DNA of 40,869 bases from a virus (Duplodnaviria; Heunggongvirae; Uroviricota; Caudoviricetes). Shown here one piece after another: positions 3,088 through 25,951 of the stretch (positions are counted from its first letter, which is position 1; each line of letters starts with the position of its first letter). Both the position numbers and the translations under genes were made by a program. The stretch lies in the IMG/VR virus record IMGVR_UViG_2541047754_000003; one strand, given 5' to 3'. Under the pieces are notes generated by a model. The model worked only from the letters and a program-made list of their open reading frames with translations, did no database searches and had not been told where the DNA came from.

Positions 3088-3316
3088 AATGAACACCGTT
3101 TATTACGCATAACAATCTCCTTACTATTGAAGATTCACACATAATAAACCATTTAAGGATAATAGTTACCTCAAAACGCTGTATTTCTACCTTCTACGGC
3201 AATGAAAATTTCGTTCAGAAAATGGTCTAGTGTACCTCTCAGTCACAATTAAAGAAGAAAGAAGCCGAACTTACTTCGTAATAAGCAAGCCGGCTACTAA
3301 GATTAATCCTCAATAT

Positions 3317-6073
3317 TTAGCTACTTTCAAGCATTGCAAGACGTGATTCTATTTTTTCGATTCTTCTACGCAAATAAGCTGACTCAAGCCATAAACACTG
3401 GTCAGTACGGATACCCCACCTATTTCCAGCCTTGCAAACCAGAGTTCGCTCTTCTGTTTCGTATTCTTCTTCCATCTCAATTTCGACGCCATCCACAACT
3501 TTAGTGATCATCCTTACCGCCATCACTGGCGCGTATTTATCATCCCATTCATCGTAACAGAGAAGGCCAAATCTGGTTCCATCAATCCCATGCGCGAGGA
3601 AAGTGTCTCTCACTTGTTGTGCTATAACACCAAAATGCCAGCGGGCACCATCTCCCTTTTCCCTGACGGCATCAAGCCAGCGAAAAGCTACAATCCTGAT
3701 ATCTCCCCATGCATCCAGAATTGCATCACCTTCATAACCACGAGACATATACAAGCTGAGCTCACTTGTACTAATCGGTTCACTTTTTTCTCTACCATCT
3801 GATGTGTTTATCGAACCGTTCGCAGAATAAACCTGTGCCCATCTAAATGATGGTGCACCAAGAGATTTGCTGTTATCAATAATTGGTGAAAAATTACCTT
3901 TAATGGCAATATTTCCAGAGTCGCCGAATATATTAATAACTGCAGAGTCATCACCATGGTTTTTTACGCTTAAGTTTCTTGATGAAATATTTATATCTTT
4001 GTTATATCCACTAACATTAATCCATCTTTTACCATCAATGTGATACCCGTAAATATTTCCGTCTGATTGTTCGTCAGGTGACTCTCTAAGAACAATAGCA
4101 TCTGCTCCAGACGACCATTGTATTTTTGTATCTGTAGGCCTCCAGTTCTTTATAATGAACGAACCATCAGTAAACTCCGTTTTTATTTGTCTATTGTCTA
4201 CAAATGCGTCTCTTGGTTTAAACTCACTTGTGTTAACGCTGCTCTGAAGATCAGAAGCAAAAAATCTAAGATTTCCTGTATAACCCTGAGTCTCGGTCTG
4301 GTTATACGCAATCATAATTCCATTTTCAAACTCAGATGATGTTATTTTAACATCACGGCAATCACCAAAAATGCAATTTCCTTTATCAAATGTTGTTTGA
4401 GCTTTGAATTTATCAAACCTTAAATTACGAACAGGGAAACCATCAACCTCTAATGCAAAGGATGCAGGAAGGCCAAAGTATTCTGATGGCTTACCTGATG
4501 TATGATCAAGAGTAGTGGCTACTGTATTCTCAAAAACAGTCCCGCTAAAATTATTACCAATTGACGGAAACCTGATTACACTTATTGTACCTTGTATTTC
4601 AGGAGAAATACCAGATAGTGTGATGTTAGCTCCATCAAATGATGCATCTGAATACGTATATACTGATTCACTGCCAGCAATTTTAAACTGTTTAACTGAA
4701 GTTATTCTCATCGACTTTTTATGTTTAAATGTCACTGAGCTTTCAGTATTACTTACAAGATCAATCTGAGGGCTATTCCTTATCGCGATCCCTGACTGGA
4801 CATAAACGTTATTAAAGTGCGTTTTTTCAGGATTTCCCTTCATTGAAAGGCTCCCGTCATTTTCTGTCAGTAGTAGTCCTTTTACCCTCCAATAGCCGAC
4901 AATCTGTACGTTATCAATAACTGAATCACAGCTATCGTATACATGCAACCCTATATCCCAGTTATCACCCAATGAATAAGAATCAGGGTTATTGTATCCT
5001 TCAATACCATTTTTACTTACCATTATTCTCAGATTGCGTAACTGTGATGCCCTGTTGATACTAACAGCTACGCTCATGGCTTTTGGTGTAGCAGGAGTAA
5101 CACCTACAGAATCTTCATTTGTAAACTCAGTGAACTTACAAGATATCCCTTCAACAATTTTAACTGGTCTTTCATTAGAGATGTTAAAAAAATATTTGTT
5201 TTTTTCTCCATCACCAGTAAATACAAGATGGGTTCCTTTACTCCAACTTTTTAATAATCTTTCAGGCGCTGGTCTATATGTATCCCAGTAATCAATTCCA
5301 TCACCAATTAATGAAACTCCAGGAGGCACATCTATATTCTTAGAAATCATCCATTTACCTGCAGGTATTCTAACGACACTTGCACCAGAATTTATCGCAT
5401 TAATTAACCATTCAGACGCATCAACTTCAAAATTTAATGCAGCATATCTTTGCTCAAACGGAACAAAATCAAGAGCGTTAACGTTATCCCGCATCTTATC
5501 CTGGAACGTTCGGTATACTGCTCCAGAACCATACTGAATAAACCAACCAAAACCACCAATAACTCCGGCGATTGCAGCATCGACATAATTACGCATTGAG
5601 CGATTATTTACAGCGTCCTGCTCAAGTGATGGATCAGCAAGGTTAGATATTCTGTTTTGCTTTGCATCGTAATATTTTGCAAGCAAAGATGGTTTCATCA
5701 ATGCACGTCTGAACCACCCAAAACATTGCTGGATCAGCATCGTCAGGTAGTCAAAAGCATCTTCATGCACTTCGGGGAAAAATTTACCCTGATTGCGAAG
5801 GTCTGTCTCCTGCACTACATCAAGCACACGATCTATCGTAATTCGCCATCCAGCAGCAAGCGGAGACGGAAGAACAACAGAACCGCCACTATAAGTGCCC
5901 GCCCCAGTTACCGTATAACCGGTATCCAGAACCAATTCTGTTACGTTCCCGTTCAGGTCAGACACCTGAACAACCAGGTCGGATTTTTTGAAAATACGGA
6001 AGGTATACGGAAATGATGTCGTAGCGCCGTTACCAGTGTATTCGTTGTGGTCAACTTCGGTTGAGACCGTCAT
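3317..6073 (-). CDS. Tailspike: conserved podovirus N-terminal anchor domain, central beta-helix-like enzymatic domain, C-terminal self-cleaving intramolecular chaperone (peptidase S74-like)
   Basis: 918 aa; N-terminus MTVSTEVDHNEYTGNG...; Gly/Asn/Ser-rich repeats typical of beta-helix depolymerases; C-terminal motif S-D-G-R-E-K (Ser/Lys dyad spacing). Confidence 0.85.
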   Translation of the reverse strand: MTVSTEVDHNEYTGNGATTSFPYTFRIFKKSDLVVQVSDLNGNVTELVLDTGYTVTGAGTYSGGSVVLPSPLAAGWRITIDRVLDVVQETDLRNQGKFFPEVHEDAFDYLTMLIQQCFGWFRRALMKPSLLAKYYDAKQNRISNLADPSLEQDAVNNRSMRNYVDAAIAGVIGGFGWFIQYGSGAVYRTFQDKMRDNVNALDFVPFEQRYAALNFEVDASEWLINAINSGASVVRIPAGKWMISKNIDVPPGVSLIGDGIDYWDTYRPAPERLLKSWSKGTHLVFTGDGEKNKYFFNISNERPVKIVEGISCKFTEFTNEDSVGVTPATPKAMSVAVSINRASQLRNLRIMVSKNGIEGYNNPDSYSLGDNWDIGLHVYDSCDSVIDNVQIVGYWRVKGLLLTENDGSLSMKGNPEKTHFNNVYVQSGIAIRNSPQIDLVSNTESSVTFKHKKSMRITSVKQFKIAGSESVYTYSDASFDGANITLSGISPEIQGTISVIRFPSIGNNFSGTVFENTVATTLDHTSGKPSEYFGLPASFALEVDGFPVRNLRFDKFKAQTTFDKGNCIFGDCRDVKITSSEFENGIMIAYNQTETQGYTGNLRFFASDLQSSVNTSEFKPRDAFVDNRQIKTEFTDGSFIIKNWRPTDTKIQWSSGADAIVLRESPDEQSDGNIYGYHIDGKRWINVSGYNKDINISSRNLSVKNHGDDSAVINIFGDSGNIAIKGNFSPIIDNSKSLGAPSFRWAQVYSANGSINTSDGREKSEPISTSELSLYMSRGYEGDAILDAWGDIRIVAFRWLDAVREKGDGARWHFGVIAQQVRDTFLAHGIDGTRFGLLCYDEWDDKYAPVMAVRMITKVVDGVEIEMEEEYETEERTLVCKAGNRWGIRTDQCLWLESAYLRRRIEKIESRLAMLESS

Positions 6074-6526: not shown

Positions 6527-6560
6527 ATTTAAAGGCCGCAAGAGCGGCCTATCGTTTCGC
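6525..6560. terminator. Bidirectional intrinsic terminator between convergent genes
   Basis: Hairpin GGCCGC-AAGA-GCGGCC flanked by AAATTTAAA on one side and T-rich tract on the other. Confidence 0.5.
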
Positions 6561-7277
6561 TTTGTGCTCATCCCAGCACGTTTTGCACCATGCCATTAAG
6601 CCGTCCGCATTTTGATTATTAGGGTAAAAGCTGGTTCGTTTTCTGCGGACATTACAAATTGGGCACCACTTCATATGGCGTGTATTCTTTGGGCCATCGA
6701 GACACCTTGCACACCACTTAGTCAATCCATCTGGATTTTTTGACGATTTCCTGAATTTTTCATATGGAAGGTTTATTCTGCATCGCAAGCACTGCTTGCT
6801 ACCACTTGAAACTCTGTTAGCTGATTCTTCTTTTGGCGGCGATGCAGAAGGTATTCTTGCTGGCTCTGATACTGCCTGAGGTGCTTTTTTAGATGACTGA
6901 GACGATATGTCATCACCAGGGAATCTTCCATGATATGCCGGACGCGTTGACACTCCAGGTGGAAGCTCAGCTGTAAACGGCTTTGGCTGAATCAGTTGCC
7001 TCTCTTTTGCTAACTCCTGCTGTTTATAATATGTCTGGATTACCGCACTATCATAAGCAGGAGGTGCGGAAATATTAGGCGCATTACCTCCAGTTTTTTG
7101 AAACTGAGTAGAGGTGTGTTCTATCACCTGTGTACGATTAATCGTTATCTCCCCATCTTCGGTCTTTATCGTTTTGTTATGATTAACGACCGTACGATCA
7201 GAGATCTTAGTCTTGTTCTGGTTGATAACGTAAATAATCACCGCAACCACACCAACAACTATCCAGAAAACTTCCAT
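6549..7277 (-). CDS. Membrane-anchored protein with two C-terminal Cys4 zinc-ribbon modules; function unknown
   Basis: ATG 7277 with GAGGA RBS; N-terminal TM helix; Pro/Ser-rich linker; two C-x2-C...W-C-x2-C modules. Confidence 0.6.
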   Translation of the reverse strand: MEVFWIVVGVVAVIIYVINQNKTKISDRTVVNHNKTIKTEDGEITINRTQVIEHTSTQFQKTGGNAPNISAPPAYDSAVIQTYYKQQELAKERQLIQPKPFTAELPPGVSTRPAYHGRFPGDDISSQSSKKAPQAVSEPARIPSASPPKEESANRVSSGSKQCLRCRINLPYEKFRKSSKNPDGLTKWCARCLDGPKNTRHMKWCPICNVRRKRTSFYPNNQNADGLMAWCKTCWDEHKAKR

Positions 7278-7671: not shown

Positions 7672-8358
7672 ATGACTGCTAACGTAACCCCATCTGTTTT
7701 TCATTTTGAATCAGAGGCAACCATTCGAGCCATTGTTATTGATGGAAATCCTTGGTTTGTTGCCAAAGACGTTATTAAAGCTCTTCAACTGACAAACCCC
7801 ACTATGTCAATAAAATCTCTTGATGATGATGAAAGGGCTAAATTTAACTTAGGCCGTCAAGGCGAAACCAATATTATCAACGAGTCAGGCCTCTACACAC
7901 TGATCCTCCGCTGCCGCGATGCGGTGACACCAGGCACTATCCCCTACCGCTTTCGTAAATGGGTTACAGGTGAGGTTCTTCCTCAGATCCGCCGCACCGG
8001 AAGTTACATTAAAAACTCGCTCCCGCAGGAAGAACGCATAAAGATGGTTGCCGACCAGGTAGCCAACGCCACGGCGTCAGCAGTAATGCAGGCGATGAAG
8101 ATAGAGAACAAAACCTACAGTGCCCCGCTGAAGCCCGGCTACCGCAGCCTGATTCACTCGCCGTCTGGTGTTCTCGGCCTGACGGAGAACTCACTGCTGA
8201 TGAATCTGCTGAACCAGTTACAGGAAGACGGGCACGACGTATCGGGCGCGGCGGCAGAGCTGACCACCATGTTCTGCTACATCGTCGGTGTGAGCAAATG
8301 CCTGCGTGATATCCAGACGCACGCGGAGTACATCAACGACAAAGCAGGATTCTTCTGA
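7672..8358 (+). CDS. ant: Antirepressor (BRO-N-like N-terminal domain plus Ant C-terminal domain)
   Basis: ATG 7672 with AAGGTGA RBS; N-terminal FHFESEATIRAIVIDGNPWFVAKDVIKAL resembles BRO-N antirepressor domain; upstream part of ORF-track ORF is structured leader. Confidence 0.8.
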   Translation: MTANVTPSVFHFESEATIRAIVIDGNPWFVAKDVIKALQLTNPTMSIKSLDDDERAKFNLGRQGETNIINESGLYTLILRCRDAVTPGTIPYRFRKWVTGEVLPQIRRTGSYIKNSLPQEERIKMVADQVANATASAVMQAMKIENKTYSAPLKPGYRSLIHSPSGVLGLTENSLLMNLLNQLQEDGHDVSGAAAELTTMFCYIVGVSKCLRDIQTHAEYINDKAGFF

Positions 8359-8431
8359 CAGAACGGCGGCACATGGATGTGCCTTTAAATAATTCTGTAC
8401 AGATTGCAGACTGTTGGTGAATAGCGTACTA

Positions 8432-8446
8432 TTACCTCAAGGGTAA
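8432..8446. promoter_or_regulatory. Operator palindrome TTACC-N5-GGTAA
   Basis: TTACCTCAAGGGTAA about 60 bp upstream of the 8507 ORF. Confidence 0.6.
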
Positions 8447-8506
8447 ACGGATTGGTTTCATTTTTATTAATCCGTGTAATGAACTTATGAGATATGAGGT
8501 AATGTC

Positions 8507-8686
8507 ATGCGAAACGAAAAATTGCAGATGCGTAGAGCGCAAGCTGCCGCAAGACGTTCTTTCAATGGAAGCGTAGAGTGCGTAAAAGTTACTATGACAA
8601 AAGATCACGCAAGTCGCGTATCCCGCGCTTTCTTTGATTCTCGTAACAATAAGGAAAATTATGAGTTCGTCTGCGTCGCAGAATGA
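8507..8686 (+). CDS. Small ORF (59 aa) overlapping the next gene; candidate antitoxin or partner protein
   Basis: ATG 8507 with GAGGT RBS 6 nt upstream; 26-nt overlap with the 8661 gene; one codon below the ORF-track length cutoff. Confidence 0.4.
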   Translation: MRNEKLQMRRAQAAARRSFNGSVECVKVTMTKDHASRVSRAFFDSRNNKENYEFVCVAE

Positions 8687-9206
8687 TAAAAATCAAATTG
8701 TCAGATATAAGGGTCGAGTATTGCATACGCAAAATTTCTCGGCCCTTTGTGCATCTGATCTTGAGCTGAAGAAAGTATCTGATGCCTTTACCCAGTATTG
8801 GAAAACGGGATACCATCCATCTCTTGGTAAAGATGCTGCATTTGCTCGTCCGACAGAAATGCTTAAACTAAATGTCAGGCATACTCATGTCGATAACCAA
8901 GACTATATTCCAGAAGATAGTGATAAAAAACACACTGGTAAAAAATCATCTTGGGATGCATGGAAAAATATAGCGTCTGTGCAAGTAAAATGCATACCAA
9001 CAAGTGATTGCTTTTTAGTTTATTCGGTAAATCACAATCGTGATGCGCTGGTTATGTTTTTTGTTGACGCAGATGCCCACAACATAACTGAGCAAGAAGA
9101 GTTTAAAGAGGCAGCAATCACTATCAGTTATCAATTCTTTGAGAAAACAAAAACAGAACCAATGCCTTTAGAAGAAGATCTTTTTTCTGATAAATGGAAG
9201 GAATAA
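8661..9206 (+). CDS. Hypothetical protein with YafO-toxin-like motifs (possible ribosome-dependent mRNA interferase)
   Basis: ATG 8661 with AAGGA RBS; motifs D-F-x-Y-W-K-x-G-x-P..GKDA, H-T-H-V and D-C-F-L-V-Y recalled as similar to YafO; not confirmed by search. Confidence 0.5.
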   Translation: MSSSASQNDKNQIVRYKGRVLHTQNFSALCASDLELKKVSDAFTQYWKTGYHPSLGKDAAFARPTEMLKLNVRHTHVDNQDYIPEDSDKKHTGKKSSWDAWKNIASVQVKCIPTSDCFLVYSVNHNRDALVMFFVDADAHNITEQEEFKEAAITISYQFFEKTKTEPMPLEEDLFSDKWKE

Positions 9207-25874: not shown

Positions 25875-25951
25875 GTGGCATTAGCTCAGTTGGACAGAGC
25901 AACCGCCTTCTAAGCGGTTGGTCGCAGGTTCGAATCCTGCATGCCACGCCA
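25875..25951 (+). tRNA. tRNA-Arg (anticodon TCT), phage-encoded
   Basis: 77 nt; 7-bp acceptor stem GTGGCAT/ATGCCAC, D-arm TAGCTCAGTTGGACAGAGCA, anticodon loop CTTCTAA, T-arm GGTTCGAATCC, 3-prime GCCA; acceptor stem differs from E. coli argU as I recall it. Confidence 0.9.

Follow-up and report, generated by a model that had tools for sequence, protein, structure and literature searches.

The DNA analysed here is IMG/VR record IMGVR_UViG_2541047754_000003, a stretch of 40,869 nucleotides that we call the window. Judged by its sequence, it is a complete prophage of a temperate podophage of the phiV10/epsilon15 type (Uetakevirus) in Escherichia coli, and besides this prophage it contains essentially only yfgH and yfgI. 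This work deals with its tailspike gene and with the surface structure that the encoded protein recognises. A preliminary description, made from the letters alone, had placed a modular tailspike with a self-cleaving C-terminal chaperone at 3317-6073; the open reading frame (ORF) found there, on the minus strand, fits these coordinates exactly. In our view the locus is very probably best explained as a tailspike with exchangeable modules and an S74 chaperone, and this tailspike is probably directed at the K14 capsule.

The ORF (Table 1) starts with ATG, has a GGAG 7 nt upstream, runs without interruption through 918 codons and stops at codon 919. In a profile search, PHROG 1171 ("tail spike protein") covers the product from end to end (E = 7e-300). 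E. coli 85.0412 and ECE170 have a 100%-identical tailspike, and 11 more genomes have versions with no less than 98.7% identity; some part of the gene is found in 509 complete E. coli genomes, the entire gene in only 13. The corresponding cluster of 99%-identical proteins holds 654 member sequences of 918 amino acids (aa). The GC content is 45.7% in the part encoding aa 1-165, 36% for aa 211-760 and 45.1% for aa 761-918, compared to ~50% in the remaining window. This step between the centre and the flanks indicates that the gene is a mosaic. Simple scans gave no promoter signal above shuffled expectation around the gene and no convincing terminator candidate 3' of it.

The N terminus is assigned as the module that anchors the protein to the particle. 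It is 68% identical to aa 1-162 of phiV10 gp25 and 71.5% identical to aa 1-165 of epsilon15 gp20, whose genes occupy the same position, and the similarity to both ends at aa ~166. Beyond this point the receptor domains are unrelated, a forced global alignment giving 10-37% identity for blocks of 30 residues, and BLASTP of gp25 against the S74 region of the window tailspike found no similarity. The anchor also matches the N-terminal 180 residues of the solved tailspike 28lx (E = 1e-31), a sequence that recurs in the Carin-1 tail assembly 8ck1. Pas et al. delimited the genus-wide anchor as the first 205 aa of phiV10 gp25 (PMC10408124). Because the AlphaFold2 (AF2) model is poor in this region, with a predicted local distance difference test (pLDDT) score below 50 for aa 84-185, the assignment rests on sequence homology. 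A conserved anchor of roughly 150 aa had been proposed; the module is there, but its length is nearer ~166 aa. Judged by where the coverage of relatives ends, recombination boundaries lie at aa ~166, ~203, ~223 or ~273 in different relatives, and phiv142-3 shares the stretch aa 1-273 at 75% identity.

The C terminus carries a predicted intramolecular chaperone of the Peptidase_S74 family. PF13884 matches at aa 758-829 with 40.6 bits (cut-off 22; E = 3.1e-10), and aa 709-917 align over ~200 residues to the chaperone of the K1F endosialidase endoNF (3GW6; E = 5e-34, or 2.6e-35 in another search), scores far beyond chance. Further matches among solved chaperones are 9vvr, 3gud, 7y5s, 6eu4 and 4uw8. 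In the modelled C terminus (pLDDT 75-88), helices within 769-827 are followed by a hairpin (846-880) and a last helix (890-917), which is the S74 pattern of a helical core, a long beta-hairpin "tentacle" and a C-terminal helix; Foldseek aligns it to 3GW6 with E = 2.4e-13 and a template modelling (TM) score of 0.60 on the target. Immediately upstream, aa 715-757 align to the stalk part of 3GW6 and give a weak match to Pfam End_tail_spike that is below cut-off (E = 0.0027). The chaperone had been expected to comprise about 155 aa around an SDGREK motif: the S74 match with its dyad holds, at a length of 161 aa.

The Ser/Lys motif is indeed in register with the dyads of endoNF and of the T5 fibre protein pb1. 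Ser758, whose codon is window 3800-3802, lies opposite position 911 of endoNF, the site of the S911A mutation, and Lys763 lies opposite K916 ("tAngerK" in the mutant); an Asp, an Arg and a Thr of endoNF are aligned to D733, R744 and T757. In T5 pb1 the scissile bond is Thr1263-Ser1264, Lys1269 activates, Arg1250 from the neighbouring chain senses correct trimer folding, and Asp1239 has been described as well (PMC4690869). The offsets of D733 (-25), R744 (-14), T757, S758 and K763 are those of D1239, R1250, T1263, S1264 and K1269. In 52 homologues, S758, D759, K763, H813 and Q819 are each at least 90% conserved. By analogy, we predict that the Thr757-Ser758 bond is cleaved, which would release a fragment of 18.6 kDa (aa 758-918) from the 83.9 kDa part with aa 1-757. 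As in the K1F endosialidase and T5 pb1, three chains would first come together through their C-terminal domains, which would template the folding of the stalk trimer. The site for the activation of Ser758 by Lys763 would be complete only once the trimer has folded correctly and a neighbouring chain supplies Arg744. After the cut the chaperone would depart, leaving a kinetically stable mature spike, and the trimer would dock on the tail by its anchor as the single receptor-binding tailspike of the phage.

For the central part, a beta-helix had been suggested. This fold is borne out by the structure model, in which pLDDT exceeds 90 at aa ~195-625, and by the fold search with Foldseek. Six acidic residues (D370, D373, E416, E542, D563 and E583) do not vary in 40 homologues, even where identity is as low as 36%, and are candidates for the active site, although they are not mappable onto solved relatives, which are at most 17% identical. 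We predict that the central module is a capsule depolymerase.

The same beta-helix is present in WP_213666884, the tailspike of a P22-like prophage, with 97-100% aa identity over aa 271-750. This protein occurs in strain NCCP12480, where its gene adjoins argW and intS, and in 15 other genomes. It has a P22-type N terminus and a shorter, different S74 domain (TSDETLK) that is 30-43% identical to that of the window tailspike. At the DNA level the two genes match at 96% from window 5407 to 3796 (~1.6 kb), with breakpoints at aa ~223-259 and no more than 3 residues from the cleavage serine. A near-identical beta-helix with breakpoints on both sides indicates that the receptor module was passed as a whole from one genus of phages to another. 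The swapped-in receptor domain of the preliminary description is thus seen directly in the P22-like tailspike, and the shift in GC content agrees with it. In a comparison with 5.8 billion proteins, the centre with its chaperone was also seen joined to N termini with PF09008, PF18668 (Ackermannviridae TSP), PF03906 (T7 fibre) and PF12571 (tail-collar), and the anchor of aa 1-203 (94-97% identity) is joined to other centres, including Peptidase_G2. PF09008, the P22 head-binding domain, was found in a cluster related to WP_213666884 (cluster P0004). Shuffling of anchors and receptor domains is known in Uetakeviruses and Lederbergviruses (PMC10408124). With high confidence, based on sequence comparison and modelling, we describe the protein as a three-module architecture of anchor, horizontally exchanged beta-helix and S74 chaperone.

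What does the exchanged module recognise? We searched 5,426 complete E. coli genomes by megablast with chimeric queries of 1.5 kb of module DNA and a marker gene, the markers being read from the number of matching places per genome. The module is present in 29 genomes, as a Uetakevirus-type gene in 13 and as a P22-type gene in 16. The O loci of the carriers differ: read directly, they are O6 in 85.0412, O15 in NCCP12480 and O25 in CRKP-1. The O6 wzy gene was found in 6 of the 29 carriers and the O15 wzy gene in three, so the O antigen is not the common factor, and O-antigen specificity was rejected in this role. A K antigen has been named by Pas et al. as one possible receptor of receptor-binding proteins that occur in several serogroups (PMC10408124).

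The capsule locus of 85.0412 has a short kps region 2 between kpsMT and kpsSCUDEF. It encodes a 4-epimerase, a protein of 760 aa that combines a glycosyltransferase family 2 (GT2) domain with a KpsC/S-like (Capsule_synth) transferase of 3-deoxy-D-manno-oct-2-ulosonic acid (Kdo), and a hexapeptide acetyltransferase. The same gene order, at 98.2% identity, is found in JJ1886, for whose capsule locus a figure legend gives the type K14 (PMC10866875). All carriers but one (28 of 29) have the gene for the 760-aa polymerase, compared to 80 of 5,397 other genomes (Fisher odds ratio 1,861, p = 1.5e-48, with the relatedness of the genomes ignored), and hosts of the P22-like WP_213666884 carry this marker as well. 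Since the gene is shared by 28 of 29 carriers whose O types differ, the likely receptor is the K14 capsule, and we consider this the probable answer, with some room left for others. The K14 repeat is an O-acetylated N-acetylgalactosamine-Kdo (GalNAc-Kdo), and the gene content of region 2 fits a GalNAc-Kdo polymer with O-acetyl groups. K52, suggested as the shared capsule by the O15:K52 clone, was ruled out by the Kdo-transferase domain of the KpsC/S type and by the match to the K14 locus of JJ1886; K52 is not known to contain Kdo. K14 is a beta-Kdo capsule (PMC12887879) that, according to the reference list of PMC7387560, was first described from an O6:K14:H31 strain and, according to the supplements of PMC13171598, is frequent in sequence type (ST) 127 O6:H31 and occurs also in ST131. 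Host genomics would thus have the beta-helix recognise, and probably depolymerise, the group 2 K14 capsule; once the capsule is degraded, the virion would reach the outer membrane. The preliminary description had named LPS or capsule as possible substrates, and between the two the distribution of hosts favours the K14 capsule.

Some further observations were made in these genomes. Two matching places for the module were seen in NZ_CP196906.1 (ECE170), NZ_CP019243.1 (Combat2C1), NZ_OZ040490.1 and NZ_CP121153.1 (E57). This suggests double lysogens in which two prophages carry the same receptor module, probably one phiV10-like and one P22-like. O15_8X has a P22-type copy and a phiV10-type gene that is only 81% identical. 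The genome of E50 is arranged differently, the position syntenic to the O locus being the ompA/hya region. In JJ1886, an ST131 strain, the region-2 gene for the 4-epimerase (L013:7493-8482) is annotated as a pseudogene with an internal stop, whereas it is intact in 85.0412 (L009:4546-5565); for this reason JJ1886 may not make a normal K14 capsule. The colanic-acid cluster of 85.0412 contains IS1397 between wzxC and wcaK (L005:9557-10905, NZ_CP122448.1).

The classic expectation for such a spike is an O-antigen enzyme, with a host range set by the O serogroup as in phiV10 (O157) and epsilon15. Tailspikes of Uetakeviruses and Lederbergviruses are the textbook cases of this activity, receptor-binding proteins of prophages often match the serogroup of their host (PMC10408124), and O6 is enriched among the carriers (6 of 29 versus 148 of 5,397 genomes, p = 1e-4). 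Such an enrichment would, however, arise in any case, as many O6 lineages have K14. Modules that are 98-100% identical reside in hosts with at least three unrelated O loci (O6, O15 and O25), 20 of the 29 carriers have the wzy gene of neither O6 nor O15, and all but one have the K14 marker. Moreover, in phiV10 the tailspike gene is directly followed by oac, an O-antigen acetyltransferase gene (L003:23636-24652), whereas in the window there is an empty gap of 220 bp, in which the ORF list and the annotation of the identical prophage show no gene for modification of O antigen or capsule. Taken together, this makes O-antigen specificity very improbable. The assignment to K14 has weaknesses of its own, and those on the genomic side are that the link is a co-occurrence over partly clonal genomes (for example CREC-36, CREC-U1, CREC-U3 and CRKP-1; E50, E67 and E20), that the presence of the marker was read from match counts per genome and not from each locus, that one carrier, GF43, is without the region-2 marker, and that the K14 label of JJ1886 comes from the word order of one figure legend. 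The association could then be hitch-hiking, the receptor being another surface structure or the prophages circulating in K14 lineages; the genomes are non-independent, only one marker per locus was used and the statistics ignore kinship. But pure clonality is unlikely, since the association covers the three O groups, two prophage backbones that are unrelated and inserted at different sites, and isolates from human, bovine and poultry sources, and against a background of 2% the chance that five independent lineages are all K14 is p ~3e-9. We therefore regard hitch-hiking as quite unlikely and keep to the K14 capsule as the probable receptor.

On the side of the protein, too, there are points that weigh against a functional K14 depolymerase. 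The nearest solved beta-helices are only 10-17% identical (7-17% in the fold search), too distant to assign the enzyme family, catalytic residues or the type of reaction; the AF2 model is that of a monomer and is poor at aa 1-27, 84-185 and 627-635; Pfam PF12708 (Pectate_lyase_3) does not match the tailspike at E up to 1; and in NZ_CP122448.1 the Prokaryotic Genome Annotation Pipeline (PGAP) lists the identical gene among pseudogenes ("incomplete; missing C-terminus"). For many homologues at 40-80% identity a PF12708 match is on record, and the modelled beta-helix fold stands although membership in this sequence profile fails. It may be asked whether the beta-helix binds the K14 capsule as a pure adhesin, or removes O-acetyl groups, without cutting the backbone. 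The invariance of the six acidic residues across 40 homologues is what an active site would show, the best-scoring phage relatives are depolymerases, and a Pfam search detected no SGNH domain in the tailspike. Phage esterases known so far use SGNH domains. A spike that does not cut is thus unlikely. The PGAP flag would suit a decaying prophage remnant whose gene makes no functional spike. Yet the annotated pseudogene (L001:20283-22757, NZ_CP122448.1) corresponds to window 3599-6073 and covers the first 825 codons only, while the ORF continues through the S74 domain to the stop; we dismiss the flag as an annotation artefact. All 918 codons are open with proper start and stop, the 654 sequences in the 99%-identical cluster have the full 918 aa, the residues of the catalytic site are all intact, and the prophage retains every module from integrase to spanin. 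A remnant is hence extremely unlikely. It should be mentioned that such a call would hide the S74 chaperone domain from protein databases.

As a functional analogue, the spike of the K1 endosialidase comes closest to the window tailspike. Both have an exchangeable N-terminal anchor and an S74 chaperone, with the Ser/Lys dyad, the Thr before it and the Arg and Asp further upstream all in register, and endoNF of K1F is directed at a capsule, as is predicted for the window tailspike. The catalytic parts differ: the endosialidase has a beta-propeller sialidase and degrades polysialic acid, whereas the window tailspike has a beta-helix without detectable similarity to it and K14 as predicted substrate. 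Outside the chaperone, the likeness is restricted to the last 43 residues of the stalk, with their weak End_tail_spike match. CUS-3, a P22-like K1 prophage, belongs here as well: it too is a temperate podophage, and the capsule targeted by its spike is of group 2. T5 pb1 (4UW8) has the same S74 chaperone, with the same Thr-Ser scissile bond, Lys at +5, Arg at -14 and Asp at -25, but it is a siphovirus fibre with a non-enzymatic, mannose-binding tip, and its likeness to the window tailspike extends only over the chaperone and the residues immediately upstream (E = 7e-10). phiV10 and epsilon15 share the anchor (68-72% over ~165 aa) but target O antigens, not a capsule. Each architectural element is known: S74 chaperones from endoNF, phi29 gp12 and T5 pb1, and beta-helices from depolymerases.

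The backbone of the window is related to phiV10. Of the first 25 kb, ~73% aligns to Escherichia phage phiV10 at an identity of ~96.5%, and the similarity starts at window 1163, just past yfgI, which is probably the left end of the prophage. At the other end lies the integrase gene (39619-40869), whose start is the last base of the window. The same sequence, including a 100%-identical tailspike gene, sits between yfgI and guaA in the chromosome of E. coli 85.0412. The order of genes is integrase, recombination, repressor, replication, terminase, portal, capsid, internal proteins, tailspike and lysis genes. The lysis cassette past the tailspike consists of two holin-like genes, a GH19 endolysin and an Rz-like gene, and the placement of the tailspike gene between virion genes and this holin-endolysin-Rz cassette is that of Uetakevirus genomes. 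A tRNA-Arg gene (anticodon TCT) lies inside the prophage at 25875-25951, between the terminase and portal regions. Adjoining the tailspike gene is an ORF of 242 aa (6549-7277, minus strand); the product has a hydrophobic N-terminal segment and, at the C terminus, repeated CxxC motifs that resemble a zinc ribbon. A strong terminator-like hairpin (6550-6533) overlaps its stop codon. Between tailspike and virion genes there is also an accessory ("moron") block at 7672-9206 with genes for a BRO-N domain protein (7672-8358, plus strand) and a type II toxin of the YafO family (8661-9206, plus strand) beside which no antitoxin is annotated; the coordinates of this block were transferred by offset from the annotated copy in NZ_CP122448.1.

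Table 1 Features of the tailspike gene and of the adjacent gap (window coordinates)
Feature	Coordinates	Strand	Remarks
Complete tailspike gene	3317..6073	-	918 aa plus stop; predicted precursor 102.4 kDa
Particle-anchoring module, aa 1-166	5576..6073	-	Homology to Uetakevirus (epsilon15/phiV10) tailspikes
Linker/neck, aa 167-222	5408..5575	-	Between anchor and exchanged module; several recombination boundaries
Exchanged receptor-binding module, aa 223-757	3803..5407	-	Predicted right-handed parallel beta-helix plus C-terminal beta-rich stalk (aa ~650-757)
Stalk segment, aa 715-757	3803..3931	-	Before predicted cleavage site; holds Asp733, Arg744, Thr757
Peptidase_S74 intramolecular chaperone, aa 758-918	3320..3802	-	Pfam PF13884, 3GW6 homology
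SDGREK motif, aa 758-763	3785..3802	-	Ser758 nucleophile and Lys763 general base (S-x4-K), predicted by alignment
Gap between tailspike stop and lysis cassette	3097..3316	.	220 bp, nothing encoded according to the ORF list

The architecture described here is textbook and teaches nothing new about how tailspikes work; the added value is in the predicted specificity for K14. This capsule type is missing from the K antigens for which phage depolymerases are listed as known (PMC12488582), and our literature search found no paper that links a phage to the K14 capsule and no K14 depolymerase. We lean, if only somewhat, towards the view that the protein is the first identified K14-specific depolymerase of E. 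coli, a beta-helix acting on a beta-Kdo group 2 capsule and an interchangeable cassette of phiV10-like and P22-like temperate podophages that lysogenise K14 strains of extraintestinal pathogenic E. coli (among them O6, O15 and O25, the last probably ST131). In a recent population study, K14 was among the most invasive capsule types of E. coli, with an odds ratio surpassed only by that of K52; it is also found in clonal complex 131, a multidrug-resistant lineage (PMC13171598). If the prediction is true, the gene would be a ready reagent for K14 typing, stripping of the capsule could sensitise K14 strains to serum or to other phages, and the module may be used for retargeting engineered phages or tailocins. 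For the phages themselves it calls for caution: since the same module is found in O6, O15 and O25 hosts that share the K type and not the O type, the tailspikes of Uetakevirus and Lederbergvirus prophages are not safe predictors of the O serogroup.

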